In this document: positions 28,887 through 64,000 of the stretch, piece by piece | How the letters are laid out: every line of letters begins with the position of its first letter | How positions within the stretch are numbered: the first letter of the stretch is position 1 | Source of the DNA: a virus | Taxonomy: Duplodnaviria > Caudoviricetes | Reading direction: 5' to 3' (one strand) | DNA length: 64,000 bases | Virus record (IMG/VR): IMGVR_UViG_3300031857_000001 | Translations under genes and position numbers: made by a program | The notes under the pieces: generated by a model | Told to the model about the DNA's origin: nothing | The model's database searches: none | Seen by the model: only the letters and a program-made list of their open reading frames with translations

Positions 28887-29639
28887 TTATTTTAACATAC
28901 CTTGGACCAACCCATAATAGATAACTTTATATTTTTTCATAGAGCTTCTAATTTCTTTAGTACTCAAATTAGTCATTTCTCTCAGAGATAATAAAATAAT
29001 ATTTTTATTAAACTTATTATTTGAAGTCCCTATAAATATGTCATCATAATTTTGAAAAATTTCATATAAAGCCTGTCCTAGTTTTAACTCATTTTCGTTT
29101 AATGTATCATCCTCCATTAATAACTCTATTTGAATTATAAAATTTTTAATAATTGATTCAGAATCTAGTGAATCGTTATCAATACTGTATGAAAAATCCG
29201 GATTATTTTCCAAATCAGTTGAGATGTCTTCATAAGATATTTTTCTGTTCATATCTTTTTGGTCTTTTATAATTTGACCCATAAGATAATTTTTACAGAT
29301 TGTACCAAAATACGAATAAGCCTTCTTTTCTTTAGCCGGCTTAAACTTATCTATTTTGGTCATTAAAAACGAGTGAGTGTCTATATGAATTTCGTTAAAA
29401 TCCATATCTTTTCTATATAGCTTATATCTTCTTATTATAGAAGATATCATCTTATCTAAAGGTTTTCTTAGGTAGTCGTTGTATATTTTGTTTTTTTCTT
29501 CAAAAGTACTGGCCGATAAGAATCTTATAACGGCCATTTCTTCTCTTACATCGAAATAATTTGCTTGTTTTGGTTTTCTTCCTTTCTTCTTTAACTCAAC
29601 ATTTGTATCACCACTTCCGTTGAATTCTTCAATCATCAA
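28887..29639 (-). CDS. gp55: T4 gp55-like sigma factor for late transcription
   Basis: Region-2-like 'KIDKFKPAKEKKAYSYFGTICKNYL', similar to the gp55-family 'KFDP...AFSYFT' pattern. Confidence 0.65.
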   Translation of the reverse strand: MMIEEFNGSGDTNVELKKKGRKPKQANYFDVREEMAVIRFLSASTFEEKNKIYNDYLRKPLDKMISSIIRRYKLYRKDMDFNEIHIDTHSFLMTKIDKFKPAKEKKAYSYFGTICKNYLMGQIIKDQKDMNRKISYEDISTDLENNPDFSYSIDNDSLDSESIIKNFIIQIELLMEDDTLNENELKLGQALYEIFQNYDDIFIGTSNNKFNKNIILLSLREMTNLSTKEIRSSMKKYKVIYYGLVQGMLK

Positions 29640-30439
29640 TTATTGTTTGACTCGTATTTTATGGCTCTGTCATTAATAAAGAAATATTCTTTTTTTGCCG
29701 ATTCAATCCAAAACTTAACTTCATCTTCAACCAAACTTGTCTCACCATTCTTATAGTTCCAAAATATTGAACCAGTTCTAAAATTGGTATGTTTGTATCC
29801 TATTTTAGGAATTGTCATTATTCTAACAGAATTGTATGTCATTCTTAAAAAGAATTCATACCCAAATGTTAGTTTAAACGATGATTTCATTAACCCATAG
29901 TCGATGAACGCACTTTTACGAATCACCATTCCCGATGTTTGAAAATTTTGGAATTGATGTAGAGTTTCGTTACTTAGATAACCAATTTCTGATGTCATAT
30001 TGAGAGCAAAAGTAGCTTCATTGGTAAATCCAACAAATAATCCCTTTTCATCCGTGTCAATCACCACAGGTAAAAATGCATCAACATCTTTATAAATTTC
30101 TGAATATTTTTTTACATTTTTAAACCATATAGTTGAATATTCATCATCAAATTCAAAAAGAGATATCCATTCAGACGATGAAGCTCTTACTCCATAGTTA
30201 ATTTGTTTTGCATAATTTGGTTCATCCGTCCATTTATGTTTTACAACATTTAAATCACCAAAATCAAAAGAATTCAAAAATTCAACTAGAGATGTTTCAT
30301 CAGAATGAACAATTACTAATTCATTTATTCGAACTTTTTGAGTTTTGATAGATTCAATACATTTATTGAAATACTCTTCAAACCAAGGAGCCGAAGAAGA
30401 TTTTATTGGTAAAATTACCGATACATTAAATTTTTCCAT
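29636..30439 (-). CDS. GT2/GT-A fold glycosyltransferase
   Basis: 'VSVILPI...INELVIVH...NYGV...WISLFEFDD'. Confidence 0.75.
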   Translation of the reverse strand: MEKFNVSVILPIKSSSAPWFEEYFNKCIESIKTQKVRINELVIVHSDETSLVEFLNSFDFGDLNVVKHKWTDEPNYAKQINYGVRASSSEWISLFEFDDEYSTIWFKNVKKYSEIYKDVDAFLPVVIDTDEKGLFVGFTNEATFALNMTSEIGYLSNETLHQFQNFQTSGMVIRKSAFIDYGLMKSSFKLTFGYEFFLRMTYNSVRIMTIPKIGYKHTNFRTGSIFWNYKNGETSLVEDEVKFWIESAKKEYFFINDRAIKYESNNN

Positions 30440-30449
30440 ATTTTTAAAA

Positions 30450-31511
30450 TTATTCTACTGAAACTAATTTATTTAATTGTTCTTCAAACGAGGTTAATCT
30501 TGTATTAATGTAACCTTCAAATAATGAAACTGACTTTTCTTCAAAATATTCTTTCGTTGGTAGATTTTCTACAGCCTTTAACATCTCTTCATATAATGAA
30601 TCATTAACATTATCCTCGAGCCAATTTTGTAAGAAATCTGCAACAAAATCCACCATTTGAATTTTATTATTAACCCACAAACCATTATCAGAATTCATCC
30701 ATTGTGGGACCATATTAGGAGTAAGTCCTAAAACAGGTACCCCACACTTCATAGATTCAAGAGGGAAAGTTCCATAAGAACTAGTTTCATCAATCCAAAC
30801 GGATAAGAAACAATCTTGAAAAACACTTGCAAATTCTTTTTCAGATAATCCTCTCATATCTTTGAATGTAACCCATCTATATTGTGGAAACTTTACATAA
30901 AAATTCTTAATTAAATTAATACTGTCTCTTTGTTCTCTTGAATGAATTGCGATAATTGGCTTAGGAGGAAACTGTTGTTTCTCAAAATTATTTGAGATAT
31001 ATGGAGGTAATACATCATATGAAACGTTTCTCATAACGTTTTCTAAATATTCTTTTTGAGTATCTGAAGTCGTTATACACTTGTAAAATCCAAGTTGATT
31101 CCAATTTTCTCCGGGTTGGAGAGTTTCTAAAACATGGTCGTAAGCCTGAGATAATACAATTTTACCACAAGGTAATTTTGTTATTTGACTCATAACAAAA
31201 CCAAATAGTTCAGGAACAATTATAAAATCTTCAGGAGATACCTCCAAATTTTGACCTTCAATTGATTTATGAGGTAATTTTTCATCATATTCAGAACCCA
31301 ACCAACCTGAGACTCCTGTGTAGTCCGTTTTTTCATGAAGCATAACTGGGTTGTATCCCGAATTTAAAAGAGACATTGCAAATCTGTAAATGTAAGCAAC
31401 TGATGCCTTAGCATTCCCCTTTGTGTCTTGAACAATAAAGTATATTCTTGATTTTTTATTCTTTATGTTCTCAATTGATTTTTCTAATTTTGAAATCTGT
31501 TCTTGTGTCAT
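30450..31511 (-). CDS. GT-B (GT4-like) glycosyltransferase
   Basis: C-terminal 'ETSSYGTFPLESMKCGVPVLG' matches the GT4 E-x7-E type motif. Confidence 0.7.
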   Translation of the reverse strand: MTQEQISKLEKSIENIKNKKSRIYFIVQDTKGNAKASVAYIYRFAMSLLNSGYNPVMLHEKTDYTGVSGWLGSEYDEKLPHKSIEGQNLEVSPEDFIIVPELFGFVMSQITKLPCGKIVLSQAYDHVLETLQPGENWNQLGFYKCITTSDTQKEYLENVMRNVSYDVLPPYISNNFEKQQFPPKPIIAIHSREQRDSINLIKNFYVKFPQYRWVTFKDMRGLSEKEFASVFQDCFLSVWIDETSSYGTFPLESMKCGVPVLGLTPNMVPQWMNSDNGLWVNNKIQMVDFVADFLQNWLEDNVNDSLYEEMLKAVENLPTKEYFEEKSVSLFEGYINTRLTSFEEQLNKLVSVE

Positions 31512-31512
31512 A

Positions 31513-31773
31513 TCAATATTTGTTTAATAATCCTTTATTTAATAATGTATTAAATGATAATTTGAATGGAATTGATAGGTCAGAACTCTTTGGTCCCAAT
31601 GTCTCATCAACTTCATCTTTTTCAGTTAATAATATCTCAGTCATTAACTTAACCATTTCGTACCTAACTACACTTATATGATTTTCTGAAGTACCAGTAT
31701 CATTTGGTATACTTATGTAATTATCAATTTCATCTAAATCTAGATAATAGTTTTCATTTAGTACTTTTAACAT
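31513..31773 (-). CDS. Small acidic hypothetical protein
   Basis: 86-aa ORF, translationally coupled. Confidence 0.65.
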   Translation of the reverse strand: MLKVLNENYYLDLDEIDNYISIPNDTGTSENHISVVRYEMVKLMTEILLTEKDEVDETLGPKSSDLSIPFKLSFNTLLNKGLLNKY

Positions 31774-32369
31774 TCTGTTATTTGTTTTAATGTTTTTTCG
31801 AATTCTTTTATAGAGCGTATCATATATAAGGAGTCGATGTTTTTATTATATTCGGTTTCGAATTTTATAACTATCTTTTCTTTAGGACACTCTAATAATA
31901 AAGAAGGGTTTGATGTAAGTAAAACATCAACCTCGCTCCACATTGAGCTCATAGTAATATTACTGTAAAATTTAATTTTCTCAACTAAACATCCAAATTT
32001 TGATAGAAAAAATAGAGTTGCCGGTTTTGATTTACTAATTTCATCGGAAACTATTAGTAATTCGTGGTTATCCCTTAAATTAATATAAATCTCATTTAAA
32101 TCATTAAACGTGTTATATTCTGATGATTGAGCGTGACCAAAAATTTCCATTGGAAATTCCTCATATAAAAAAGAATACATTTCATCATCATCTCTAAAAC
32201 TAAAATGTTTTTTAATTTCCAAATCTTCGACAGGATAAGTTATTTCATATTTAAAATCATTTTCATATTCAATACCTTCTGTCTTATCAATCATAAATTT
32301 TTGATAAGTCTGTTCTATTTTGTCCAAAGTATTTCTTAAAACTCCGTTTACCTCAATACCAATTCTCAT
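31767..32369 (-). CDS. HAD-superfamily 5'(3')-nucleotidase-like protein, degenerate motif I
   Basis: 'MRIGIEVNGVLRN' in place of the usual 'IGIDxDGVL'. Confidence 0.5.
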   Translation of the reverse strand: MRIGIEVNGVLRNTLDKIEQTYQKFMIDKTEGIEYENDFKYEITYPVEDLEIKKHFSFRDDDEMYSFLYEEFPMEIFGHAQSSEYNTFNDLNEIYINLRDNHELLIVSDEISKSKPATLFFLSKFGCLVEKIKFYSNITMSSMWSEVDVLLTSNPSLLLECPKEKIVIKFETEYNKNIDSLYMIRSIKEFEKTLKQITEC

Positions 32370-33088
32370 TATTCGTATCTTTTTAGAATTTTACTAATTA
32401 ATGGATTTCTAACAACATCTTTGTTATCGAATTCAAATACACCAACATCAGACAAATCTTTAAATTTTTCTATAGCGTCCCAAAGCCCCGAGTGTCTTTT
32501 ATCTTTATATCTATCAGTTTGTTCTAAATCACCTGAAATAAAAAACTTACTATTGAAACCTATTCTAGTTAATAGTAGTTTCATCTGATTTGGGGTTGAA
32601 TTCTGAGCCTCTTCGAAAATAAGAATTGAGTTGTCTATATTCATACCTCTCATATAGGCTAAAGCGAATACCTCAATTACATCTATTTGTTTTAATTTTT
32701 CACGAGCCTCCTTACCAATAATTTTATTCATTAGATAGTAAGATGGGAAAATGTAAGGGTCTAATTTTTCTTCAACATTACCAGGTAGAGAGCCAAGTTT
32801 TTCTTCGGCCTCAACTGCGGGTCTTACAATTATGATTTTTTCATATGGGGTTAATGGGTCTGATAATAAATCCAAAGCCGCTTTCATTGCGATATAACTT
32901 TTACCAACACCTGCGGGACCAGAACAAATTGTAATTTGATTATTTATTAATAAATCGTAATATTTTTTTTGATTTTCAGATAAAAATTTTTCCTTTGATT
33001 TTTTCTTTATTATTTCAGTGATTTGGTCTTTCCTACTCACATTTTTCTTCGGTTCTTCTTGAACTGAAATAGGTTTTTTTCTTGTCAT
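32369..33088 (-). CDS. phoH: PhoH-family ATPase
   Basis: 'GPAGVGKS', 'LGSLPGNVEEKLDPY', 'YMRG', 'EEAQN', 'LLTRIG', 'GDLEQTD'. Confidence 0.95.
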   Translation of the reverse strand: MTRKKPISVQEEPKKNVSRKDQITEIIKKKSKEKFLSENQKKYYDLLINNQITICSGPAGVGKSYIAMKAALDLLSDPLTPYEKIIIVRPAVEAEEKLGSLPGNVEEKLDPYIFPSYYLMNKIIGKEAREKLKQIDVIEVFALAYMRGMNIDNSILIFEEAQNSTPNQMKLLLTRIGFNSKFFISGDLEQTDRYKDKRHSGLWDAIEKFKDLSDVGVFEFDNKDVVRNPLISKILKRYE

Positions 33089-34062
33089 ATATTAATTTTA
33101 AAATAATTCATCCAATAGTCAATCATCTCGTCTAACATAGATTCGAATGTGTAATCATGTAACCATCCTGTAGATTTAATAAGTTTAGAACTATCTCCTT
33201 TTAAGTCATGTAATTCTTCAGGTCTCAAAAATTTTTCATCTTGTTTTACGTATTTTACCCAATCTAATTCTAGTTTACCAAAAACATATTCACATAATTC
33301 TCTAACTGAATGAGATACACCTGTTGCACACACAAAATCGTCAGGTTTATCTAACTGTAGAATTTCCCACATTGCCTTAACATAATCTTTAGCATGACCC
33401 CAATCCCGGGTGGCTTCCAAATTGCCTAATCTTAATTCATTTGATAGACCTAATTTAATTTTAACCGCTTCTTTACATACTTTATTTGTTACAAAGTTAG
33501 TTCCTCTTCTTGGTGATTCATGATTAAACAAAATACCGTTTGAGATAAACATTCCATAAGAATTACGATAATTCCTACAAATATTATAACTAAAAACTTT
33601 AGCACATCCATATGGTGAAACGGGATTCATCGGTGTGGTTTCCCTTTGAAATCCGTCAGAATCAATAGAATTACCAAACATTTCAGATGAAGATGCTTGA
33701 TATATTTTAGTATCAGGTTTAATTAGTTTAACGGTCTCCAATAAATTTAAAGTCCCTAATCCGGTTACATTTGCGGTATATATTGGTTGGTCAAATGAAA
33801 TTCTAACGTGAGATTGTGCGGCTAAATTGTATATCTCATCCGGCATTATTTTTTGGATGACCCCAACTAAAGAAGACATATCAGTCAAATCTGCGTATTC
33901 TAGCGTTATTTTATTATAGACATTATTTAATCTAGCAGTTTGATTTTCCGCAACGGAATTCCTTTTTAAAATTCCATATACATCATAACCTTTTTCTATT
34001 AAAAATTCGGCCAAGTATGAACCATCTTGACCATTTATACCTGTAATTAATGCTTTTTTCAT
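33085..34062 (-). CDS. gmd: GDP-mannose 4,6-dehydratase
   Basis: 'ALITGINGQDGSYLAE', 'YNLAAQSHV', 'YQASSSEMFG', 'SPYGCAK', 'LFNHESPRRG', 'RDWGHAKDYV'. Confidence 0.95.
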   Translation of the reverse strand: MKKALITGINGQDGSYLAEFLIEKGYDVYGILKRNSVAENQTARLNNVYNKITLEYADLTDMSSLVGVIQKIMPDEIYNLAAQSHVRISFDQPIYTANVTGLGTLNLLETVKLIKPDTKIYQASSSEMFGNSIDSDGFQRETTPMNPVSPYGCAKVFSYNICRNYRNSYGMFISNGILFNHESPRRGTNFVTNKVCKEAVKIKLGLSNELRLGNLEATRDWGHAKDYVKAMWEILQLDKPDDFVCATGVSHSVRELCEYVFGKLELDWVKYVKQDEKFLRPEELHDLKGDSSKLIKSTGWLHDYTFESMLDEMIDYWMNYFKINI

Positions 34063-35213
34063 AAATTTTTATTAACTATTTGAATTACTTTATTAATTTC
34101 ATCATAAGTCATTTGATGATTATTTGGAATATATATACCAAGTTCGTGTACCAATTTTGAGTTAGGCAAATTTTGTTTACCGTATCTTTCATACCAAAAT
34201 GGATGCTCGTTAATCGAACCACAAATTAAGGGCCGACATTCAATATTATTTTTGATTAACTCTTCAGTTAATGATTTGATATTTTTAGTTATAATGGGAA
34301 ATGAAAAATTTGATATAAATGAATTTTCAGGAGGGGAAATGCTCCAAAAAGTATTTTTAATTTCATTTTTATATCTTTCATAATTTTTATTTCTATTAGT
34401 TACAATAATATCTAATTTGTCTAATTGACCTAACCCGATAAAGGCTTGTAAATCTGTTGCTCTTAAATTAAACCCTGGATAATAAAAAGTATAAAGTGAC
34501 CTAAAATCATCAATATCATACTTTTTTCTTAAAGATTCTTGTTTTTCTTTAGGTAAGTCTCTGTCCCATCCGTGTGAACGTATTGATAATAAGATATGAT
34601 ATAAATCTTCATCATCAGTAGATATCATACCTCCCTCAATAGTTGATATATGATGTCCAAAATAAAATGAAAAAGTTGATAGGTCCCCAAAAGTACCCAA
34701 TAATTTATCTTCATATTTTGAGCCCATTGATTCACAAGTATCCTCAATTAACAAAATATTATTTTCTTCACATAATTTAATAATCTCATTCATATGATTT
34801 GGAAAACCTAAGACATGAACCAAAATAATTGCTGATGGACTATCATTTTTAATGATATTTTTTAGATGGTCAATGTCAAGTCCTAAATTATTCATGTCAC
34901 ATTCACACATTATTGGTTCCATACCTAATTGAATTGCTGGCGTGACGGTCGTGACCCAAGAAACCGCAGGAACCACTATTTTTTTATTCTTTAATCTACC
35001 TGATAATATTAAAGAATATATTGCAGCTAAATTAGCTGACGAACCAGAGTTAACAAATACTGAATATTTAACCCCTAACCATTTAGACCATTTTTTTTCA
35101 AACTCCTCAGTTAATTTTCCCTTAGTTAATCTTGGATTTGTCTCTAACCAATAGATTAATTTTTTTATGTCGTCAAAATTGATAGTATCTTTTACTAATG
35201 TAATTTTTTCCAT
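34059..35213 (-). CDS. colD: PLP-dependent GDP-4-keto-6-deoxymannose 3-dehydratase, ColD-like
   Basis: DegT/DnrJ fold with His in place of the Schiff-base Lys ('SFYFGHHISTIEGG'); 'SHGWDRDLP' lacks the E1 Cys cluster. Confidence 0.75.
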   Translation of the reverse strand: MEKITLVKDTINFDDIKKLIYWLETNPRLTKGKLTEEFEKKWSKWLGVKYSVFVNSGSSANLAAIYSLILSGRLKNKKIVVPAVSWVTTVTPAIQLGMEPIMCECDMNNLGLDIDHLKNIIKNDSPSAIILVHVLGFPNHMNEIIKLCEENNILLIEDTCESMGSKYEDKLLGTFGDLSTFSFYFGHHISTIEGGMISTDDEDLYHILLSIRSHGWDRDLPKEKQESLRKKYDIDDFRSLYTFYYPGFNLRATDLQAFIGLGQLDKLDIIVTNRNKNYERYKNEIKNTFWSISPPENSFISNFSFPIITKNIKSLTEELIKNNIECRPLICGSINEHPFWYERYGKQNLPNSKLVHELGIYIPNNHQMTYDEINKVIQIVNKNL

Positions 35214-35214: not shown

Positions 35215-36141
35215 TTATTTTCTTATATTTTTATAATTTTCCTGAAACCATTTAACTGTTTTTTCTATACCATCTGATAAATCCGTAAATTCAAAATTTT
35301 CCGGTACATTAGATATTGCTGGCTTACGATATTGACCCATTGGTTTAGTATTATCGAAAATTATGTTATTAAAATCTATATCTAATTTATTACATATTAT
35401 TTTAGCAATTTCTAATATAGAATGTTCTTGTTTATTAATTGCCATAAATGGTTCATCACTTTTCCAATTATCGAGTGACCACATTATTAGCCTTGCCAAA
35501 TCTTCCGAATATATTACTTGACGTAAAGGACTACCATCTCCCCATATTACCATTTTTTCAGAGTTTTGTTTAGATAAATGAGCCCTATGTATCATAGCTG
35601 GAATCATGTGACCATCATCTAAATGAAAATTATCATTTATTCCATAAACATTTGTAGGGACAACAGATACCCAATTAGCGTTTAATACTTTTTTAATAAT
35701 ATTTGTCTGATAACCAGATAATCTTTTCGCATATGAATACCCATGATTTGAAAAGTGAGGAGGTCCTTGGTCAATTTGATTAGGGGTCAACGGAAATGTT
35801 ATGTTTTTATCAGGAAAAATACACGTTGATAATAAATTAACAAAATTAGGTATTTCATTTTTAAAACATGACTCAATAATATTATTATTGATAATAAAGT
35901 TATCAATAAAAAAACCTTTATTATTTTTCATATTGGCTTGAACTCCTCCGACCTTAGCCGCACAATGTATTACAGTGTCAATATTATTATGTTTAACATG
36001 ATATGTTATATAATCAATTGTTTTTTTATTATCTAGAAGATTTATATCTTCTTTTGTGTGATAGATTTGATTATCACCTAATATTTTTTTTAAAGCAGAC
36101 CCTACCAATCCGTTAGAACCTGTCACTAAAATTTTATTCAT
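35215..36141 (-). CDS. fcl: GDP-L-fucose/GDP-L-colitose synthase (epimerase/reductase, Fcl/ColC family)
   Basis: 'VTGSNGLVG', 'AAKVGGVQAN', 'LSTCIFP', 'YSYAK', 'PTNVYG.NDNF', 'WGDGSPLRQ'. Confidence 0.9.
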   Translation of the reverse strand: MNKILVTGSNGLVGSALKKILGDNQIYHTKEDINLLDNKKTIDYITYHVKHNNIDTVIHCAAKVGGVQANMKNNKGFFIDNFIINNNIIESCFKNEIPNFVNLLSTCIFPDKNITFPLTPNQIDQGPPHFSNHGYSYAKRLSGYQTNIIKKVLNANWVSVVPTNVYGINDNFHLDDGHMIPAMIHRAHLSKQNSEKMVIWGDGSPLRQVIYSEDLARLIMWSLDNWKSDEPFMAINKQEHSILEIAKIICNKLDIDFNNIIFDNTKPMGQYRKPAISNVPENFEFTDLSDGIEKTVKWFQENYKNIRK

Positions 36142-36923
36142 AATTTAATCCAATTTTCGCATCCTATTTCTGAAGTATCTAAAAACTGAACTCCAAACCA
36201 GTTAGATGGATATATTACTTTTTTATTATCATTATTATTTAACCAAGCTCCCCACCAACTAAAACTTGAGTTCGCAATTATATTATTCTTACACATTGAC
36301 ATTAGATATAAATCTTGATAGTCTATGTTTCCATTAATAAACGTTTTATTTTTAATAAACCCTAAATTTTCTTTACACCAATCAATGTCGTCAGAAAAAA
36401 TTAAGTAGTCCAAATCCTCACCAATTTTTGACACGGATTCTTTATAATAGTTTATAGTTTGTACCGGGTGAAAATGAGATTTTTGAACATAATTACCACG
36501 TCTAACATGTAGTGAACAAGTGTTTCCAGATAGAACATCTGAATATTTCATAGTAATAAATTCATATGTTTCAGAGTCAATCTCAAATAAATTTAAAATA
36601 TCTTGTCTTAAATTTTTAAAATATTTTTCATTTTGATAATAACCTTTTAATTTTAGATTATTTTTAGGGTTTGGTATTTCAGAATATTGTATGGGTTGAA
36701 TCGGTTCATGAGACGAATAGTTTGAGTACTCTGAAACAAATTTTATTTTTCTAAATATATTATTATAGTATAAATCAATTGGGCTATGAATTATAGATAT
36801 ATCCGAAATATCAACAACCATTTCTCTATTATCTCTAATTGATGTGTAATATGAAGCCGCTATTTGAAATATGTAGTTTCCTAACCCCCCTTTTAATTGA
36901 GGAGACACCAATAATTTTTCCAT
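36138..36923 (-). CDS. GT11 alpha-1,2-fucosyl/colitosyl-transferase
   Basis: 'GGLGNYIFQ', 'LHVRRGNY', 'IIANSSFSWWGAWL'. Confidence 0.92.
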   Translation of the reverse strand: MEKLLVSPQLKGGLGNYIFQIAASYYTSIRDNREMVVDISDISIIHSPIDLYYNNIFRKIKFVSEYSNYSSHEPIQPIQYSEIPNPKNNLKLKGYYQNEKYFKNLRQDILNLFEIDSETYEFITMKYSDVLSGNTCSLHVRRGNYVQKSHFHPVQTINYYKESVSKIGEDLDYLIFSDDIDWCKENLGFIKNKTFINGNIDYQDLYLMSMCKNNIIANSSFSWWGAWLNNNDNKKVIYPSNWFGVQFLDTSEIGCENWIKL

Positions 36924-36925
36924 AA

Positions 36926-37267: not shown

Positions 37268-37268
37268 T

Positions 37269-56237: not shown

Positions 56238-58016
56238 ATGTTTAAAAGTGTAAATATATTAAAATCAGTTAGCCCCGAAGGAGTTTTTCAATTAAATAAA
56301 ACTTCATTTGATGACATTTTAAAAAATTCACATTCTAAAATTACATTACAGTTACCGATTGGAAATGAACTTCATAACTTAGAATTAAACAAATCAGAAT
56401 TATTTGGGTCTAATTTTTATAGAACTTATAGCTCATCTCAAATCTCACAAAGAAATTTGGGGTCTCACTATAAAGGTAAATTAAGTGGATTTGAAAATTC
56501 ATCGGTTGCTGTTTCATTCACTGAATTGGGGGTTGTAGGTTTAATTTTGGATGGTGAAAATCAATATGAAATTTCCCCATTTGGTACTGATTCATATAAA
56601 GTTTTACCAGTCGAGGGTGTACATGAATTTGAATGTGGGGCCGGTCTTTCCCCGGACTACGACGAGGAAAAAAAGAACTCGTTAGAAAACAATCTCAGGT
56701 TAAGTTCCAATGGGGATATTTTAATGAAATCCCCAACCGCAACAACAAGATGTCTTAATGTTTATTGGGAGGCGGATACGGACATATATGACACGCTAGG
56801 AGTAAACTCAGAATCATATTTAGCATCACTATTTAACGCGGTACAATTATTATTTTCTAATGATGGTATACAAATTTATTTATCTGATTTATTCGTAAAT
56901 TCAGGAACTTCATTTTACTATCCAACCATTCCATATAATCAAATTGGTACTTTGGATATGTTATATGAATTTGAGGTGGTTAGACCGACATTTAATGGGG
57001 ATGCCGCGCAACTTTTTTCATTTAACAAAGGGTATGGTGGAGGAGTTGCTTGGGTTGATGCGTTATGCGCAAGGCCATACGCTTTTTGTTGGATAACATC
57101 GTCATTCCAACAACCAATGACATATAGTTGGACCGTGGCGGCTACAACACATGAACATGGACACACGTTCGGTTCACCACACACATTTTCTTGTAGCTGG
57201 AATACGAATAATTTTCAACCTGGAGACAATCCCCGAGGTTGCTCAAGAATTGATAGTTGTAGAATTGAATGTACCGCAATTTTGAGCTCTGGTTGCACTG
57301 TGGCTCAACAAAATCCAGGATATGGAACTTGTAGTATAACATCTTCATCAAATTGTGGAGCATGTTGCGCTCCCAATTATTGTTGTGGAGTCCCTGGAAG
57401 TCCGGCTCAAGGTGGAACAATTATGAGTTATTGTCACCAAGTTTCGGTAGGTACTAATCTGAACTTAGGTTTCGGACCACAACCTAGACAAAGAATGCTC
57501 GATGCAATCAATAGCCTACCTTCAACTTGTATAGAATGTTTGGGCCCACCACCTGAAGAAACTCTAACACCAACACCAACTCTCACTAAAACACCCACCC
57601 CGACACCATCAATAGGTACCAGTCCTAATCCTACCCCAACTCAAACTATAACACCTACTAAAACAATAACTAACACACCAACTTTAACTAAAACTCCAAC
57701 ACAAACTAAAACACCAACAATAACTAAAACTTTAACACCTAGTATAACCCCAACAATAACCAGCACACAAGTCAATAATAATTGTCAGTATTGTTTGAGT
57801 TTACATCCATGTACAGTTAATAGGTTTTTTTGGCAATGTTGTGAGCCGTATGATAGTTTTAGAGTTTATCTAATACCTTTTGATGTTTCAGAGACTCTAG
57901 TAAATGGAAATACATATTATGTAGAAGCCGTTGGTTTTTCAGGATGTGCCGTGTATGATGTAACATTAACAAATGCGGATTTTTCATATGAATATATAAA
58001 CATTATAACTCCTTAA
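56238..58016 (+). CDS. Reprolysin/M12B-like zinc metalloprotease 1 (prodomain, catalytic domain, Thr/Pro stalk, CCEP module)
   Basis: HExxHxxGxxH 'HEHGHTFGSPH' (57150-82); Met-turn 'GTIMSY'; prodomain 'FECG'. Confidence 0.9.
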   Translation: MFKSVNILKSVSPEGVFQLNKTSFDDILKNSHSKITLQLPIGNELHNLELNKSELFGSNFYRTYSSSQISQRNLGSHYKGKLSGFENSSVAVSFTELGVVGLILDGENQYEISPFGTDSYKVLPVEGVHEFECGAGLSPDYDEEKKNSLENNLRLSSNGDILMKSPTATTRCLNVYWEADTDIYDTLGVNSESYLASLFNAVQLLFSNDGIQIYLSDLFVNSGTSFYYPTIPYNQIGTLDMLYEFEVVRPTFNGDAAQLFSFNKGYGGGVAWVDALCARPYAFCWITSSFQQPMTYSWTVAATTHEHGHTFGSPHTFSCSWNTNNFQPGDNPRGCSRIDSCRIECTAILSSGCTVAQQNPGYGTCSITSSSNCGACCAPNYCCGVPGSPAQGGTIMSYCHQVSVGTNLNLGFGPQPRQRMLDAINSLPSTCIECLGPPPEETLTPTPTLTKTPTPTPSIGTSPNPTPTQTITPTKTITNTPTLTKTPTQTKTPTITKTLTPSITPTITSTQVNNNCQYCLSLHPCTVNRFFWQCCEPYDSFRVYLIPFDVSETLVNGNTYYVEAVGFSGCAVYDVTLTNADFSYEYINIITP

Positions 58017-58032
58017 AAAGTATATATAAAAT

Positions 58033-60051
58033 ATGAAACATTTAAGTCTACATAAAAGTTTTACAAATGATGGTGTTTTTGAATTAAATTTAAATACAAT
58101 AACCTCACTTAAAACTCAAACTAATGAAAGAATTTATCTGTCTTTACCTATAGATGGGATTGAAAAACAAGTTGAAATATATAGAACAAATATTGGGTCC
58201 GATGATTTTAAAGTTGTAAATGAATTAGGTCAAATTTTATCGTATGATTCAGGAATTCACTACGGTGGTCGGGTCATTGGCTCTGAAAAATCATTTGTTG
58301 CATTATCTTTTAGTGATGACGGAATTATCGGAATAGTTCAAGATAATACTAAAGAGTATGGGTTTACCAAAATAGATGAAAATTTTCATAGACTTCATGA
58401 AACGATTAATGATAACGAAGGGTTTGAATGTGGATGTGAATTACTATCACATAATAATAATTTACAGGAATTAAAATTATCCCCAAAAACTTTAACGTTA
58501 CCATATGCTTCTAAATGTATTAATATACGATGGGAAGCGGATTATGATGTGATACAACAATTTGGTGGAACGGGTCCGGCCATAACATGGTTGACCGCAC
58601 TTTTTAATGCACAAAAACAACTTTATGCTAATGATAATATTCAGGTTAATTTAGCCTTATTATTCTTATGGGAAAATGGTCCTTCAGGTTTTGTTGTGGG
58701 AACAACAGATGTTATACTAGATGCCTATGTAAATTATAGAAATGCAAATGGTGGCATTGCCGAGAATTGTGGTATGCTACTGAGTTTTGGAACTTCTCCA
58801 ACAAGCAATTCAGGTGCGGGTATCGCATATGTGGGGGCTCTTTGTGGTCCCAACAAATATGGTTATACACAATTAAAAAGAGGAGATTCTACAGGAACTC
58901 CTAGTTCTACTGTATATAGTAGAAGTGTTAAAGTAGTTACTCACGAGCAAGGTCACTTATTAGGTTCAAGACATACTTTTAGATGTAATTGGAATACCGC
59001 TTGGGTATATGGAGATACTACTTTTGGTGCTGAGGCCATTGACGGGACTTCCACGGTAGAGGTACCTCCAGGAGTTCCTGCGTGTGCTCAACTACCAATA
59101 CCACCCGGATTTCAAGGAACTATAATGAGTTATGGAGACAGTGCAGGAACCGCTCCGATAAATTTCGCATTAGGGTTTGGTCCAATACCTAGACAAAGAA
59201 TGTATGACTTCATTAATAACAATTTTGCGTGTTTAACATGTCAGGCGGTTCCATTTGAAACCCCAACACCAACTCCAACAACAATTACTCAAACTCCAAC
59301 ACCAACTCCAACCAAAACACCAACACAAACCCCCACAAAAACTCCAACTAAAACAAATACACCAACTGTAACTCCAACCAAAACATCTACTCCAACACCA
59401 ACTAAAACTATAAACGCAACACCTGACCCCACTCAAACTCCAACTATAACTAAAACAGTAACAAATACAAATACTCAAACCACCACCGTAACACCCACCA
59501 ATTGTTGTAGTAGATTTACATTAACTTCAGGAGTAAACGACACTGGAGGTAGTACATTTAATGTAATTTCATGTAATGGAATCCCGCAAACAACGACTGT
59601 ACCTCAAGGAACTTCAATAGATATTAATTGCGCATCCACAGTAACATTAACTTCAGGAACAGGAACATTTGTAAGATATCCTGGTTGTGTTTGCACAAGT
59701 CCAACCCCAACTAAAACTAACACCCCTACAGTAACCCCAACTACCACGATAAATCAAAGTCCTCAACCGACCCCTACACCAACAGCAACACCAACGGCTA
59801 CACCTCTTAGGGGAGATTGTGCTTATTGTATAAGTATTTATCCTTGTTCCGTTAGTAAATATTTTACCAGTTGTTGTGAACCATTTGAAAACATTAGAAT
59901 ATTTTTAATACCAGCAAATGTCGCCGACACATTAATAGATGGTGAATCATACTATGTTGAGGCTGAAGGTTTTTCTAATTGTGCTATTTATAATGAAAGT
60001 ATAACAACCGCTCAGAATTCGTATAAATATATAAGTATAACCCCTAATTGA
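58033..60051 (+). CDS. Reprolysin/M12B-like zinc metalloprotease 2
   Basis: '[11 protein letters not shown]' (58942-74); 'GTIMSY'; 'FECG'; same architecture as paralog 1. Confidence 0.9.
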
Positions 60052-60062
60052 TGATTTAGTAT

Positions 60063-63000
60063 ATGAAACAATTGAATTTACTCAGAAATATTAATTTAGA
60101 TAATTCATTTGAAATTGATGTGTCGGAATTAAGGACTGTATCATCACAGAAATTTGATACAATGACTATGTCAATTCCGTTAGGGGGTATTAATAAAAAC
60201 GTTATTCTAAAAAAAGTTAATATATTTTCTGAGAATTTTACGGTCACTACATCTGATGGAGAAAATATCGAATGGGATTTGGGTGAACATTATAGAGGAG
60301 AAATCGAAGGAGAAGAAAATTCTTTTTGTTCTTTAAGTTTCACAAATAATGAAATATATGGACATATCGTAACGACTGGCTCAACATATGATATAAATTT
60401 TGTCTCAGGCTCAACATACAGAACATCAAGTGTAAATGAAGAAAATCCTATAAATTTTACATGTCATCATGAACCTAAAGAAGGTCAAACATATTCAAAT
60501 CCATATAACCCTTCTTTAAATACAAAAAAAAACACCGGTCTTAAAACATTAAATCCTTATGTTGCAGACCAGGCAACTAAATTGGTAAAAATAGATTGGG
60601 TAGTTGATTATGACATACGACTTTTGAAAGGTGCAAATACAGTTTCGTATATAACTTCAATTTTTAATGCAACAAAAACTTTATATGAAAACGACGGGAT
60701 TTTTGTCGTACTTAATTTTTTACACATTTTTACCACATCATATTCACCGTATAGAACAACACCTCTCACGGTACCTATCAATGACGGGTGCGGGTATGGT
60801 TCCTGTTCTATGGTTTTATTGTTGTTTAATTTCAGATATAGTTTAGGTAACGGAATTTATCCCGCAGGAACTAGCGCGGCTAATTTTTCCGGTGATTTAA
60901 AACATTTGTTAACCGCTACTTTTCCAACAACCTCTTTCTCAAATCCTGCTAATAAAATACAAGGACTGGCCGATGGTATACAGGTTTTGTGTAACCCAAT
61001 ATCTTCTGATTATACCGTAGTAATTGATGGTCAAGAATATTTGGCGACAAGTACTAATTCACCAGTATGTTTCAGTCAAATTGATGTAAATGCAACCGCT
61101 AACTCAACAACATATTCATCTACAGTACAAGTAATTACACACGAACAAGGTCATTTAATGGGTTCAAATCATACCCACGGATGTTACTGGAACACAACCA
61201 ATTTTGTACCCGGAGGTAACCCAATTGGTTGTAACAGAATTGATAGTTGTGTTACTTTTGAAACTTATACTTTTTTAGGTTGTCCATCATCAGTTCAAAC
61301 TGTTTTTGAAATTGTAAATGGTGTGTGTCCTTTTCCGGGCACCCCACCCAACAGTGGTGGTACCATAATGAGTTATTGTGGTTTAGTCGGAGGAGGAAGT
61401 CAACTTTTTACAAACGGATTCGGCCCCCAACCACAACAAAGAATTGTAAATTTCATTAATTCATTATCTTGTTTACAGTCGCTAGACACCACACCAACCC
61501 CAACTCCTACTTTAACCTTAACCCCGACCAAAACCCCGACATCTACTCCGACTAAGACAATCAATGCCACCCCAAACCCAACTCAAACTTCTACAATAAC
61601 AAAAACATCAACTGTAACTCCCACTAAATCTGTAGGAGTTAGCCCAAACCCAACCACCACACCGACAATAACTCCAACAAATACCGTTACAAGAACTAAA
61701 ACTAAAACACCAATTTCAACAAATACCACAACACCAACAATAACTCCCACTAATGGTGATGATTGTAAAAACTGTACAGACCAACACCCATGTATAACAC
61801 AAACTCCGACAGTAACTCCAACTCAGCCATGTGATACCGTGATATCACAACCATCAACAAGTCCATTATTTAATATTGGTTTATCTAAATATAATAACTC
61901 AGGGTATACTAACATTGGAACCAGATTTTACTCATACGGATTTCAATTAGGAGGAAGTGGTTCGACATATTATTTTTCAAACACAAATGATGTATGGAAA
62001 AGTACCGACAGTACAAATGGTCCCTTAAACAGAAGTGGTATTTGGTCATTATCTACATTTCCGTCTAATACTTGGTTGGGATTTTCTTTTTGTATTGATG
62101 TTGTTGATTTTGCTAATTTTTATTACGTTGGTTTTGGTGCGGATAATGCCTTTAGATTGACTATAGATGGTATCGAAACTATTAACACACTGTTGGGTGG
62201 TTATAACAATAGTACTTTGACATTTAGTAATTGGCATGTATATCAGATTCCACTATACCCTGGTCATCACGTATTGAACGTTTATGGTCTAAATCTATCA
62301 CAAACAACATCAGGTGTTTTTGGATGTGAAATTTATCAAAATACACTTGATGAATTAACAGGAGCAACCTCACCCAATAACTTAAACATTATTTTTTCGA
62401 CTAGCTCTTATTCCGAATCAAATGCCGAAATAATACAATCATCAACTGGTTTACAATTGAATAGTGGATATACTTGTCCTTCTGGTTTTGTTTATGAATC
62501 GTGTACGGGTGATTGTGTAAGATTCATATCATGTCCACAACCAACTTTGACTCCAACCACAACAAACACACCAACTAAAACTAACACAATAAATTTTGTA
62601 GGTGTTACACCCACTAAGACACCTACCCCAACTAAATGTTGTTCAACATATATACTTTCATCAAGTCCTTCAGATGTTACAGGTTCAACATTTACAATAG
62701 TACGATGCGTTGGTAATTTGTTTTTAACTCTACCAGTACCTGTTGGACAATCTCAAACTATAACATGTTCATATAATGCAACTTTAATAAATGGATTAGG
62801 TTCGATAACACAATTACCTGGTTGTGATTGTAACACGGTTACCCCAACACCAACCCCAACCACTATAGAAGATTTGGGCCCCTGCTTCAATCGTTGGATA
62901 CCAACCTATACGTTCCCTTTTAACCAAAATCAACAAACTGTATTTACCGGTTTTACACAAGGAATTTTTGTTGAGATGGTACTTTCTGGTTCGGTTGAAA

Positions 63001-64000
63001 TTGCAACCTACAACGGTAATCCTCCAAGTTGTGACGTTATTAGAAGTTTTAATCCTTATACTTTAACCGCATTAAAGCAAGTTTATGCGGGTGGAATTGG
63101 GCAAAGTATTTTTAAACAACCAACAGCCCAAAGTGCTTTTGTTATAACATTTAATTTTGGTCAACCAATTAACGAAGTTACATTAGTTATAGGAGGTTCT
63201 GGAACATACGATTTCGGAGGTGGCAACGAAGTTTTTATAATAACAACAAATACTGAAATTCCAACAATTACATCAAGTATAAATTGTTATACCACAATTA
63301 ATAACAACCAAATTCTTTCAGGTGCAAATATAGTACCACCACCTGTAGGTTCAGGTACCGGAGGTGGGTTATTCACTATAAATTGTATTACGGATTATAC
63401 AACTTTAGTAATATCTGGTGCCGGTGGGTATGATGGGTCTGAAATTTCTATTTGTGAAATTTATGTACCAGGTACAACTAGAACCCCAACCCCAACCATC
63501 ACACGTACAAAAACACCAACTATAACTCCAACCACATCTTTTGGTTTTGTCCCAACTTCTACACCCACTATAACACAAACAAAAACCAACACAAATACTT
63601 CGACACAAACAAAAACCAACACCCCGACAAAAACACAGACTAAAACACCCGGTTTACCACAAAGTCCGACTCCAACACCAACTAATTGTTGTTCTAATTT
63701 TCAAATATCACTATTACAAGGATTTAATAGTGCGATTTACAATGTCAGCTCATGTCAAGGACAATCAGGAACTTTTACATACACAGGTTTATCCTTTATA
63801 ACAATAGAATGTGCAACAAACGTTACAAATGTAAGCGGAGCGTCTATTGTTAGGTTACCAGGATGTGGATGCCCAACACCAACCCCTACTCCAACACTAA
63901 CTCCAACACCTGTTACACAATGTTCTAATTTAGTTTGGCCTGACCCAACAATAGTTGTGAATGGAATAACAATAACTGTTAATAGAACAGGAAATACTTA
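60063..64000 (+). CDS. Reprolysin/M12B-like zinc metalloprotease 3 with long modular C-terminal extension (3' truncated; absent from ORF track)
   Basis: ATG at 60063 (MKQLNLLRNINL...). In-frame 'HEQGHLMGSNH' at 61140-72, 'GGTIMSYC' and TPT tracts. The frame was in register at every point spot-checked up to base 64000. Confidence 0.88.
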   Translation, partial: MKQLNLLRNINLDNSFEIDVSELRTVSSQKFDTMTMSIPLGGINKNVILKKVNIFSENFTVTTSDGENIEWDLGEHYRGEIEGEENSFCSLSFTNNEIYGHIVTTGSTYDINFVSGSTYRTSSVNEENPINFTCHHEPKEGQTYSNPYNPSLNTKKNTGLKTLNPYVADQATKLVKIDWVVDYDIRLLKGANTVSYITSIFNATKTLYENDGIFVVLNFLHIFTTSYSPYRTTPLTVPINDGCGYGSCSMVLLLFNFRYSLGNGIYPAGTSAANFSGDLKHLLTATFPTTSFSNPANKIQGLADGIQVLCNPISSDYTVVIDGQEYLATSTNSPVCFSQIDVNATANSTTYSSTVQVITHEQGHLMGSNHTHGCYWNTTNFVPGGNPIGCNRIDSCVTFETYTFLGCPSSVQTVFEIVNGVCPFPGTPPNSGGTIMSYCGLVGGGSQLFTNGFGPQPQQRIVNFINSLSCLQSLDTTPTPTPTLTLTPTKTPTSTPTKTINATPNPTQTSTITKTSTVTPTKSVGVSPNPTTTPTITPTNTVTRTKTKTPISTNTTTPTITPTNGDDCKNCTDQHPCITQTPTVTPTQPCDTVISQPSTSPLFNIGLSKYNNSGYTNIGTRFYSYGFQLGGSGSTYYFSNTNDVWKSTDSTNGPLNRSGIWSLSTFPSNTWLGFSFCIDVVDFANFYYVGFGADNAFRLTIDGIETINTLLGGYNNSTLTFSNWHVYQIPLYPGHHVLNVYGLNLSQTTSGVFGCEIYQNTLDELTGATSPNNLNIIFSTSSYSESNAEIIQSSTGLQLNSGYTCPSGFVYESCTGDCVRFISCPQPTLTPTTTNTPTKTNTINFVGVTPTKTPTPTKCCSTYILSSSPSDVTGSTFTIVRCVGNLFLTLPVPVGQSQTITCSYNATLINGLGSITQLPGCDCNTVTPTPTPTTIEDLGPCFNRWIPTYTFPFNQNQQTVFTGFTQGIFVEMVLSGSVEIATYNGNPPSCDVIRSFNPYTLTALKQVYAGGIGQSIFKQPTAQSAFVITFNFGQPINEVTLVIGGSGTYDFGGGNEVFIITTNTEIPTITSSINCYTTINNNQILSGANIVPPPVGSGTGGGLFTINCITDYTTLVISGAGGYDGSEISICEIYVPGTTRTPTPTITRTKTPTITPTTSFGFVPTSTPTITQTKTNTNTSTQTKTNTPTKTQTKTPGLPQSPTPTPTNCCSNFQISLLQGFNSAIYNVSSCQGQSGTFTYTGLSFITIECATNVTNVSGASIVRLPGCGCPTPTPTPTLTPTPVTQCSNLVWPDPTIVVNGITITVNRTGNT

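Follow-up and report, generated by a model that had tools for sequence, protein, structure and literature searches.

Islands of sugar-nucleotide and glycosyltransferase (GT) genes are an already known feature of phages, and those closest to the locus described here are found in jumbo T4-like cyanophages (Synechococcus phage ACG-2014f, P-SSM2), whose polymorphic clusters have been read as host surface remodelling (PMC7824862). Virus-encoded glycosylation has also been described for Megavirinae fibrils and chlorovirus capsids (PMC10117803, PMC9614988), the former being decorated via clade-specific glycan clusters (PMC10117803), and GTs of mycobacteriophages have been inferred to modify virion proteins (PMC11256854).

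The sequence analyzed here is a 64,000-nt window of an uncultured Caudoviricetes phage (IMGVR_UViG_3300031857_000001), with an island on the minus strand (29.6-43.2 kb) flanked by tail-like and fibre-like genes. The island is carried by a large clade of uncultured phages with contigs up to ~330 kb and is a further member of the known kind; its clade-wide distribution and the conserved frame around a variable cassette are new. As in the cyanophages, contiguous Gmd, Fcl/ColC-like, ColD-type (His-His) and GT11 genes are accompanied by further GTs, the content is polymorphic between related phages, and no experimental acceptor is known. Unlike the cyanophage clusters, the island has a clade-wide GT frame with PhoH, dUTPase and exonuclease, as well as a mini GT31, and lies between tail-like and fibre-like genes, whereas the cyanophage has GT6/GT25 genes and no tracts of alternating Thr (T-x tracts).

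The GDP-colitose pathway of E. coli O55/O111 (Gmd, ColD, ColC) offers a second comparison, since its ColD is the best solved relative of the island gene 34059, with the catalytic His kept, and the order Gmd-ColD-ColC followed by GT11 parallels colitose-capped O-units, a chemistry known from O55. In contrast to O55/O111, the window and its relatives yielded neither an initiating phosphoglycosyl transferase nor Wzx, Wzy or a ligase. Megavirinae and chloroviruses share with the island a virus-encoded sugar-nucleotide pathway and many soluble cytoplasmic GTs in clade-specific clusters, yet their glycans have been chemically shown on virions, whereas the island would be a predicted system of a tailed phage and involves other sugars. 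In mycobacteriophages of the Che8 type, GTs beside structural genes have been proposed or shown to modify capsid and tail proteins; in contrast to the island, these GTs number two or three and come without a sugar-nucleotide pathway, and they act on the C-terminal extensions of capsid and tail-tube proteins instead of long T-x stalks. Serine-rich repeat adhesins (GtfA/B, Gtf3, GT8, GT-D) are glycosylated on disordered Ser/Thr repeats before export by a GT4-type initiator and GT8, GT2 and GT-D extenders. Gtf3/GtfC are among the fold matches of the island gene 41940 and a weak GT-D-like match was found in relative G011, but the island has no GtfB partner, accessory Sec system or GtfA sequence similarity, so that the resemblance is one of mechanism only.

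Gene content of the island

Profile searches and tract counts confirmed both observations of a preliminary description of this DNA: a gene island predicted to build a colitose-type sugar chain and, adjoining it, seven large T-x proteins lacking signal peptides. The island and its upstream hairpin comprise (G and L numbers are relatives):

43225..43246, minus strand: intrinsic-terminator-like hairpin just upstream of the island
41940..43160, minus strand: GT4-like GT-B glycosyltransferase, first island gene
41215..41943, minus strand: PolB-exo-like 3'-5' exonuclease, frame gene (PF10108, 2e-13; 96-97% identical in relatives)
40622..41218, minus strand: dUTPase with N-terminal extension, frame gene (PF00692, 7e-22)
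39210..40625, minus strand: Glyco_tranf_2_5 GT-A domain (PF13712, 9e-32) plus a ~270-aa C-terminal part, frame gene
38551..39210, minus strand: probable GT8-like GT-A transferase, cassette sub-module A
37928..38554, minus strand: 208-aa soluble GT31/Fringe-like transferase (PF02434, 2e-12; PF01762)
37269..37931, minus strand: GT9-like / DUF6165-like protein with a single Rossmann-type domain
36926..37267, minus strand: small protein accompanying the GT31 sub-module (order kept in G003, L021 and L023)
36138..36923, minus strand: GT11 alpha-1,2-fucosyl/colitosyl-type transferase (PF01531, 5e-28)
35215..36141, minus strand: Fcl/ColC-like GDP-4-keto-sugar epimerase-reductase (PF01370, 3e-37; NF047922, 186 bits)
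34059..35213, minus strand: ColD-type GDP-4-keto-6-deoxymannose 3-dehydratase (PDB 2gms, 5e-74)
33085..34062, minus strand: GDP-mannose 4,6-dehydratase, Gmd (PF16363, 9e-116)
32369..33088, minus strand: PhoH-like ATPase, frame gene at the cassette boundary (PF02562, 4e-63; 97% identical in G001 and G002)
31513..32369, minus strand: two conserved frame genes (86 and 200 aa), kept in G001-G003
30450..31511, minus strand: probable GT-B transferase, frame gene (55-89% identical in relatives)
29636..30439, minus strand: GT2 family GT-A transferase, frame gene (PF00535, 29 bits; 64-92% identical in relatives)

Matches above the Pfam cut-off were obtained for GT2, GDP-mannose 4,6-dehydratase, DegT-family, epimerase/reductase, GT11, GT31 and Glyco_tranf_2_5, as well as for PhoH, dUTPase and the PolB-exo-like exonuclease. 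The island encodes about eight soluble GTs, the number given previously, with firm assignments for GT2, GT2_5, GT11 and GT31 and weaker evidence for 41940, 30450, 38551 and 37269. The nearest Atlas clusters of several of these GTs were viral, Nucleocytoviricota among them. Similarity of 38551 to viral GT8/Nucleotid_trans clusters (Atlas features, 0.92) is a lead only; 37269 matched viral DUF6165 clusters (Atlas structure, TM 0.90) and Glyco_transf_9 (0.74), and 30450 gave a sub-threshold GT1 match (PF00534, 17 bits) and a BshA C-terminal match. Neither gene in 31513..32369 had a Pfam or NCBIfam match, and the "HAD gene" formerly placed there (31767) was thus not confirmed.

The true start of 41940 is probably the ATG at 43160 rather than the TTG at 43208. 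At least 7966 homologs of this gene were found, the top 120 all at least 77% identical, and several carry the JGI name "glycosyltransferase involved in cell wall biosynthesis". Its AF2 model (pLDDT 57) matched generic GT4/GT-B enzymes, with T4 alpha-glucosyltransferase at rank 27, and the fold resembles lipid, small-molecule, protein-glycan and DNA GTs equally. The AF2 model of 39210 was poor past residue 90; its homologs have a second GT2 domain in the C-terminal part (GT2_5+GT2 in G002 and L023). No initiating polypeptide Ser/Thr GT (GT27-, GtfA-, OGT-like or other) was detected in Pfam and NCBIfam scans of the island, the sole hint being a SunS-family match of 20.6 bits against a cut-off of 350; together with the generic GT-B fold of 41940, this weighs against an acceptor among the phage's own proteins.

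Predicted colitose pathway and capping enzymes

The matches support a route in which the island would draw on host GDP-mannose and convert it to GDP-colitose through Gmd, ColD and a ColC/Fcl-like reductase. Gmd (33085) matched PF16363 over its full length (387 bits). The product of 34059 aligned with E. coli ColD over residues 13-378, and its His-His, which replaces the Lys of aminotransferases, aligned with the HH of ColD (the H188N mutant chain has NH at the same place). No close cellular donor was found for this enzyme, which shared 38-49% identity with any cellular or phage ColD found. The Fcl-family match of 35215 fell below the equivalog cut-off of 500 bits, and adjacency to ColD favours ColC rather than Fcl, GDP-fucose being a possible output as well. 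Pfam searches of the island gave no phosphomannomutase or GDP-mannose pyrophosphorylase, so that the "complete deoxy-sugar pathway" of the preliminary description holds from GDP-mannose onward and not upstream of it.

The motifs HVRRGNY and SSFSWWGAWL are intact in 36138 (PF01531, 98.7 bits), the former with Asn in place of the usual Asp, supporting its prediction as a GT11 capping enzyme. The GT31 protein (37928; PF02434, 47.6 bits; PF01762, 31 bits) keeps the motifs DDD and SGGAGY, and its nearest solved relatives are C1GalT1 (7q4i, 2e-8) and B3GLCT (3e-8), although it is far shorter than the GT31 enzymes characterised so far and lacks both a stem and a TM segment. It had 236 metagenomic homologs of ~207 aa and a weak match to one INPHARED record only. 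Pfam and PDB matches and the intact motifs thus bear out the C1GALT1-type GT31 and GT11 identities proposed earlier.

Conserved frame and variable cassette

The frame runs in the order GT4-like, exonuclease, dUTPase, GT2_5, followed after the cassette by PhoH, GT-B-like and GT2. Its four GTs, PhoH, dUTPase and exonuclease were conserved as strongly as core genes: 41940 was 95% identical in G001 and 91% in G002, where the neighbouring gene 24740 drops to 62%. In all relatives, the genes for the GT4-like enzyme, the exonuclease and the dUTPase overlap one another as a tight trio, and GT2_5 homologs were also present in the distant relatives G016, G011, G013 and G019. The cassette from PhoH to GT2_5, on the other hand, was swapped in every relative examined:

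Window: Gmd-ColD-ColC-GT11-x-GT9like-GT31-GT8like
G001: Gmd and two FkbM methyltransferases
G002: GT2/GT92-like, TylF-like methyltransferase, cytidylyltransferase
G003: two Gmd, aminotransferase, acetyltransferase, GT11, GT47-like, methyltransferases, GT31
L021: ColD-like, GT47-like, Gmd
L023: UDP-Glc dehydrogenase, FkbM methyltransferase, two dehydratase/epimerases
G011: UDP-GlcNAc 2-epimerase, GT2s

Profiles PF02397, PF00953, PF01943 and PF04932 were absent from the island of the window and from five relatives, including a 93%-complete genome of 311 kb; the clade is thus without a lipid-carrier initiating transferase, flippase and polymerase. A Wzx/Wzy- or ABC-type O-antigen or capsule locus was rejected, as the initiating phosphoglycosyl transferase, flippase and polymerase/ligase were not found. 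An LOS-type route likewise requires no flippase or polymerase, a point against an own-protein acceptor.

Proteins with T-x tracts

T-x tracts were defined by a regular expression, (T-x)>=6, and searched in the 50 ORFs of the window. Exactly seven had them (7200, 11279, 45895, 52939, 56238, 58033 and 60063):

7200..11174, plus strand: signal-less, fibre-like, 1324 aa, with a single T-x tract of 98 residues; preceded by a terminator/GATATTTAT unit
11279..17299, plus strand: signal-less protein of 2006 aa; DUF5122 beta-propeller repeats and, in the C-terminal part, seven T-x tracts
45895..49353, plus strand: 1152-aa signal-less protein with four T-x tracts; N-terminal ~840 aa conserved clade-wide
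52939..56232, plus strand: protein of 1097 aa with 23% Thr; T-x tracts cover 336 residues, and a shared Cys module is present twice
56238..63998, plus strand: three tandem reprolysin-like (M12B) metalloprotease proteins with T-x tracts

The tracts total 992 residues, ~500 of them Thr, and the longest has ~130 residues, compared with a maximum of 12-24 in 300 composition-preserving shuffles per protein. Pro (36%), Lys (16%), Gln (10%) and Asn (8%) are frequent at the x positions, and the tract is predicted to be disordered (pLDDT 24). A hydrophobic N-terminus was absent in all seven proteins (best 12-residue Kyte-Doolittle window in the first 40 aa, 0.2-0.9), whereas 951 and 1553, both lacking T-x tracts, are clear signal-peptide proteins (2.5-3.0); the same seven signal-less ORFs as those listed originally were thus recovered. 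The T-x proteins are Cys-rich (2.64% vs. 1.12%), and the shared Cys module (~70 aa) forms the C-terminal end of the first two M12B proteins, the third exceeding the window (Reprolysin_5 E-values 8e-13, 4e-11 and 3e-7 for the three). Searches in PHROGs, PDB and Atlas gave no structural assignment; the proteins may be virion components, and the tracts probably act as disordered Pro/Lys-rich spacers inside Cys-rich fibre-like proteins. No T9SS CTD was found by NCBIfam in 1553, 3960, 7200, 45895, 52939, 56238 or 58033 (E<=0.01), and a reading of the T-x proteins and the S8 protease as T9SS cargo was rejected on this basis and given that the T-x proteins have no signal peptide.

Transcription signals and distribution of the tracts

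The strict late-type motif GATATTTAT was found upstream of the T-x genes 7200 and 11279 and of the fibre-like neighbours 3960 and 49394, and upstream of no gene inside the island. Just upstream of the island, a sigma70-like TTGATA-17-TATACT follows the hairpin at 43225..43246. Interleaved with PhoH, dUTPase and exonuclease, the island looks more like a metabolic than a structural unit; this and its lack of the motif of the fibre genes count against an own-protein acceptor.

The co-occurrence of GT island and T-x tracts, put forward earlier as a check, was found in all clade members examined, all with abundant tracts, but not outside the clade, where GT2 occurred in 2/22 contigs with T-x tracts and 2/18 random controls (Fisher p = 0.77), tracts and GT2 genes being independent. 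Long tracts were widespread among unrelated viral contigs, most of them without GT2, and GT-rich control phages had none. T-x tracts are a generic phage feature, present also where phage GTs are absent. The Gmd-ColC-ColD-GT11 module recurs in the cultured cyanophage ACG-2014f, in which no T-x tract was found; the location of these four genes in an auxiliary-gene region of that phage also weighs against own proteins as acceptor.

Discussion

The best explanation of the island, put forward tentatively, is a core glycan-building locus common to the whole clade of uncultured jumbo phages. Its acceptor may, with similar caution, be sought among the phage's own late, signal-less proteins, as virion glycosylation comparable to that of giant viruses and mycobacteriophages, because the frame is core and not sporadic, lies between tail and fibre modules and is not accompanied by lipid-carrier machinery. 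In the cytoplasm, the frame GTs would assemble an inner glycan that is constant, as is its acceptor, and to this glycan the cassette would add a strain-variable outer part, in this phage a GT31 beta-1,3-linked hexose capped by GT11 with alpha-1,2 colitose or fucose.

Remodelling of the host envelope is unlikely, though a serious rival: soluble GTs would extend the host lipid A-core (LOS-type, with host MsbA/Lpt export) or Und-PP-linked units at the inner membrane face, the absence of PGT, Wzx and Wzy being explained by the LOS-type route. Other phages would then fail to adsorb to the altered surface of the infected cell, and the variable cassette would reflect an arms race among competing phages. 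To our knowledge, colitose is known solely from bacterial LPS and capsules, and GT8, GT9 and GT11 are typical LPS/LOS families. The lack of the late-type motif and the sigma70-like promoter after the terminator also agree with remodelling, as do the module shared with the cyanophage island, where it stands beside GT6 and GT25 genes, and the published reading of the jumbo cyanophage clusters (PMC7824862), although that reading is itself a proposal. However, no clade member lacks the frame, which is conserved like core and unlike sporadic accessory genes; four frame GTs that stay constant call for an equally constant acceptor, whereas host surface glycans vary. Replacement of surface LPS would moreover be slow within one lytic cycle, and no close cellular ColD donor was found (<=49% identity).

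A narrower version of virion glycosylation, in which Thr in the T-x stalks of the seven proteins bears HexNAc, extended by GT31 with a beta-1,3 sugar and capped by GT11 with alpha-1,2 Col/Fuc, a glycan that stiffens and protects the stalks, is doubtful. Equally doubtful is its extension to a cytoplasmic mucin-type O-glycosylation of the clade's own, with the conserved frame GTs priming stalk Thr of fibre-like virion proteins and of stalked proteases, and the swappable cassette adding strain-specific caps. The caps in this phage would be a GT31 beta-1,3 hexose with alpha-1,2 colitose, resembling an H-type antigen with colitose, and it is proposed that, caps being swapped between strains, each phage strain would have its own glycan "serotype" on stiff, protease-resistant stalks. 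All island enzymes and the seven T-x proteins are soluble and signal-less and could therefore meet in the cytoplasm, where the Thr residues of the disordered tracts would be reachable. The nearest solved relatives of GT31 act on protein-linked sugars, the phage itself encodes S8 and M12B proteases, PT linkers of Cellulomonas cellulases are protease-resistant when glycosylated, and island and tracts occur together in all clade members examined. Against this, relative G002 retains 778 tract residues without Gmd, ColD, ColC, GT11 or GT31, the sugar module occurs without tracts in ACG-2014f, tracts are common in phages without GTs (including 4/5 near-complete genomes), and neither a GT27-like nor another recognisable initiating enzyme was found. 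Nothing in the sequence demonstrates that sugars are placed on the stalks; while the enzymology of the preliminary description stood, its Col/Fuc-capped O-glycans were supported by no test, be it G002, ACG-2014f, the unrelated contigs, the GATATTTAT pattern or the search for an initiator. Neither were they refuted, as no clade member examined lacked island or tracts and the conservation of the frame GTs is that of core genes. The tracts are the most obvious acceptor candidates, and their glycosylation is hypothetical.

Glycosylation of modified phage DNA bases by the GT-B enzyme beside exonuclease and dUTPase, an alternative named at the outset, is very improbable despite the conserved overlapping trio and the T4 alpha-glucosyltransferase match of 41940, since the annotation of this gene is of the GT4 type, the one TS-family enzyme of the relatives best matched genuine thymidylate synthases (3uwl, 4e-68), with no dCMP-hydroxymethylase chain among the 60 matches listed, no ThyX found in the relatives and no sign of a hydroxymethyl-base pathway, and a colitose/GT11/GT31 oligosaccharide from ~8 GTs far exceeds any known DNA sugar.

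Which acceptor phage sugar/GT islands serve has been in question since the first cyanophage examples, and this clade is an unusually clean case, with a core-like GT frame, an O-antigen-like change of cassette between close relatives, no lipid-carrier genes and hundreds of potential protein acceptor sites adjoining. If the acceptor is host LOS, the island would serve a lytic jumbo phage as a core means of superinfection exclusion; if it is a virion protein, tailed phages would join giant viruses with self-made, strain-variable glycan coats, which would bear on adsorption, survival outside the host and phage recognition. Either answer would also be instructive for the cyanophage islands with their shared colitose/GT11 module.

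A conserved frame and a variable cassette

Relatives of the window phage were found through IMG/VR and assembly look-ups at several distances from the window, and genome-wide statements made here are drawn from their genomes. The clade is a large, abundant group of uncultured jumbo phages: the mini GT31 had 236 metagenomic homologs of approximately 207 aa, on contigs of up to 328 kb, and the GT4-like gene 41940 at least 7966 homologs, the best 120 of which were all at least 77% identical. The samples behind ENA ERZ23495737 and ERZ28594112 are among those rich in the clade. The order GT4-like, exonuclease, dUTPase, GT2_5, [cassette], PhoH, two small genes, GT-B-like, GT2 and a 250-aa gene was conserved, and this frame was common to the window, G001-G003, L021 and L023, while the cassette lying between GT2_5 and PhoH differed in content in every genome examined.

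Relatives of the window phage and gene content of the GT2_5-to-PhoH cassette
Window: Gmd, ColD, ColC-like, GT11, small gene, GT9-like, GT31, GT8-like
G001 (108 kb; ~90-98% amino acid identity to the window): Gmd and two FkbM methyltransferases
G002 (71 kb): GT2/GT92-like enzyme, TylF-like methyltransferase, cytidylyltransferase
G003 (34 kb): two Gmd, aminotransferase, hexapeptide acetyltransferase, GT11, GT47-like, methyltransferases, GT31
L021 (ENA/JGI contig carrying a GT31 homolog): ColD-like, GT47-like, Gmd
L023 (ENA/JGI contig carrying a GT31 homolog): UDP-glucose dehydrogenase, FkbM methyltransferase, two dehydratase/epimerases
G011 (more distant member): UDP-GlcNAc 2-epimerase, GT2s, weak GT-D-like match
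G005, G013, G016 (311 kb, 93% complete) and G019: more distant members

Gene 41940 retained 91-95% identity where the neighbouring gene 24740 fell to 62%, and the glycosyltransferases (GTs) of the frame are conserved like core genes. For 24740, no relative was detected in INPHARED and a PDB sequence search returned nothing useful; together with the conserved genes 23254 and 26568, it had no match in PHROGs. The G005 homolog of the tail-region protein 23254 (36329-37828) contained one in-frame TGA, which could mean that the gene is recoded or a pseudogene, or that the assembly is wrong there.

Enzymes encoded in the island

The sugar/GT island noted in a preliminary description was confirmed by Pfam, with corrections regarding the source of GDP-mannose and a gene named 'HAD', whose family call was not borne out. 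Minus-strand genes for GT2, Gmd, a DegT-family enzyme, an epimerase/reductase, GT11, Fringe/GT31 and Glyco_tranf_2_5 were recovered, in addition to PhoH, dUTPase and exonuclease, with four further GT-like genes on weaker evidence. The DegT-family enzyme was of the ColD type (best solved relative E. coli ColD, 5e-74), with the catalytic His where aminotransferases have Lys; the epimerase/reductase was Fcl-like, scoring under the equivalog cut-off, and the motifs of GT11 and GT31 were intact. The deoxy-sugar pathway, previously considered complete, is so from GDP-mannose onward; a pathway complete from central metabolism was rejected, since GDP-mannose must be supplied by the host. As the best cellular ColD relatives were at most 49% identical (Patescibacteria, Pelagibacteraceae), the donor search yielded no clue to the host.

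GT31 gave a single weak match in INPHARED, and PDB sequence searches with 39210 (GT2_5), 41940 and GT11 returned nothing useful. The AF2 model of 39210, built from six input sequences, was poor (pLDDT 42). That of 41940 (pLDDT 57, pTM 0.58) had generic GT-B matches only (TM ~0.5), including lipid, small-molecule, SRRP-glycan and T4 DNA glucosyltransferases, so that the acceptor cannot be told from the fold. When 41940 was modelled in complex with a 116-residue segment of alternating Thr-any (T-x) sequence, the prediction scored 0.00 ('no answer') and was counted neither way.

A candidate promoter element

The 9-mer GATATTTAT occurred nine times in the window vs. 2.9 expected, a count reached in none of 100 shuffles. 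All nine copies were sense-oriented, 10-40 nt before a gene start, and often directly after a GGAGG-stem terminator, making it a candidate phage-specific (late?) promoter element.

Copies of GATATTTAT in the window
923-931, plus strand, before gene 951
3934-3942, plus strand, before gene 3960
7175-7183, plus strand, before gene 7200
11229-11237, plus strand, before gene 11279
49373-49381, plus strand, before gene 49394
21416-21424, minus strand, before gene 20667
23247-23255, minus strand, before gene 22359
24733-24741, minus strand, before gene 23254
28866-28874, minus strand, before gene 28487

The position of the copy before gene 22359 implies a true start at Met13, not at the TTG at 23267. 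None of the copies was inside the island, which starts downstream of a hairpin resembling a terminator (43246-43225) and has a match to a sigma70-like promoter there; judging from these motifs, the island and the fibre-like genes probably belong to different promoter classes. This difference would be weak evidence on timing, compatible with earlier-made enzymes acting on late proteins.

Proteins with T-x tracts

Among the 50 plausible ORFs of the window (31% GC, no tRNA), a regular expression for (T-x)≥6 retrieved exactly the seven genes for which tracts had been described (7200, 11279, 45895, 52939, 56238, 58033 and 60063). The tracts totalled 992 residues, single ones reaching ~130, vs. a maximum of only 12-24 residues per protein in composition-preserving shuffles of the T-x proteins; Pro occupied 36% of the x positions and Lys 16%, followed by Gln and Asn. 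The seven proteins had likewise been described as lacking signal peptides, and none showed a hydrophobic N-terminus. In 951, a nuclease, and 1553, an S8 subtilase (1553-3880), signal peptides were clear and T-x tracts absent. NCBIfam gave 1553 no match to a T9SS sorting domain, so that neither T9SS cargo nor a Bacteroidota host was confirmed. The T-x proteins were richer in Cys (2.64% vs. 1.12%) and included LamG-like, DUF5122 propeller and reprolysin-like M12B domains. A Cys module of ~70 aa, which may serve in docking or binding, formed the C-terminal end of 52939, 56238 and 58033, with one further copy inside 52939.

Copies of the Cys module (invariant CC..P, R, GFS.C, Y..Y; identity 36-46%)
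54466-54687
56008-56229
57792-58013
59827-60048

The fibre-like proteins had no match in PHROGs except phrog_15511, which aligns to the T-x tract itself; the N-domain of 45895 matched only unnamed viral clusters in Atlas (all <0.9), and a PDB sequence search with 49394 gave no useful match. In G002 (L016-L017, 29138-42181), a single 4347-aa ORF was the counterpart of window genes 3960, 7200 and 11279 (3960-17299); since it opens with a 3960-type N-terminus, fibre-like genes are fused or split among close relatives. The 'intergenic' segment 18194-18436 (243 nt) of the window contained an ORF of ~70 codons (ATG near 18216), under the ORF-length cut-off used.

Relationship between the island and the tracts

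Throughout its 71 kb, which include the whole syntenic region, G002 had no Gmd, ColD, ColC, GT11 or GT31, yet kept 778 tract residues, ruling out a specific need for a colitose cap. All distant relatives had abundant T-x tracts and a GT2_5 homolog; as both are universal in the clade, they do not inform coupling either way.

A ColD-like protein was found in 61 deposited phage genomes and GT11 in 103. In the cultured Synechococcus phage ACG-2014f (L257, KJ019103.1), genes for Gmd, an Fcl-like enzyme, a ColD-type enzyme ('hypothetical protein'; 38% identical, His-His retained) and GT11 were contiguous (8466-12379), followed by GT6 and GT25 genes. This is a colitose-type pathway that the deposited cyanophage record leaves unannotated. 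Nowhere in the 218-kb genome of this phage did eight alternating Thr codons occur in a row.

At least 118 stretches of 14 alternating ACN codons were present in IMG/VR, and many of those listed were long T-x tracts of the P/N/Q/K/V type, within ORFs of 400-2200 aa. A GT2 gene was present in 7 of 27 listed T-x contigs (≥50 kb) vs. 2 of 18 controls, contigs ≥50 kb picked with a random 14-mer (Fisher p = 0.20). Relatives of the window phage accounted for five of the seven positives, and without them GT2 was no more frequent in T-x contigs than in controls (2/22 vs. 2/18, p = 0.77). Four of five near-complete T-x phages were without GT2, and the two GT-rich control contigs had Gmd-like genes and no T-x tract. 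This comparison, small (27 vs. 18 contigs), limited to the GT2 family and to fragments, and confounded by relatedness, shows no enrichment rather than independence. Overall, T-x tracts act as generic spacers in large phage proteins and sugar/GT islands are a generic phage accessory, so their coexistence here is, by itself, no argument for coupling.

Acceptor of the glycan and nature of the island

It is quite possible, if short of probable, that the acceptor is the phage's own late proteins. This reading is favoured because the frame belongs to the core and is not sporadic, because it needs a constant acceptor, and because giant viruses are an established case of virion fibrils bearing glycan clusters that are clade-specific and encoded by the virus (PMC10117803). 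Remodelling of the host envelope, as has been published for the polymorphic clusters of cyanophages (PMC7824862), is somewhat doubtful as the function of the island. Phosphoglycosyl transferases (both superfamilies), Wzx-type flippases and Wzy/ligase were absent from five relatives (one 93% complete), so the phage cannot run a lipid-carrier route of its own; LOS-type extension of lipid A-core or hijacked host Und-PP units could serve instead. Col-capped core-1-like glycans on the T-x stalks are plausible and, on balance, unlikely; the proposal of Col/Fuc-capped O-glycans there drew no support from the tests run, G002 having tracts without the module and ACG-2014f the module without tracts. Glycosylation of DNA by an island GT had no positive support, the one TS-family enzyme in the relatives best matching genuine thymidylate synthases and ThyX being absent from them. 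The thymidylate synthase of the distant relative G011 (L258, 6564-7889; 441 aa) aligned to ThyA in three stretches, and thus carries insertions of ~100-150 aa.

The island is a further case of the sugar-nucleotide/GT islands already known from phages, from which it is set apart by its clade-wide conserved frame, its phage-specific mini GT31 and its site between tail-like and fibre-like genes. The description that fits it best is a core locus for building a glycan, with an outer cassette that is hypervariable. Such a pairing of a fixed inner set of GTs with an exchangeable outer one is what a surface glycan shows under diversifying selection.
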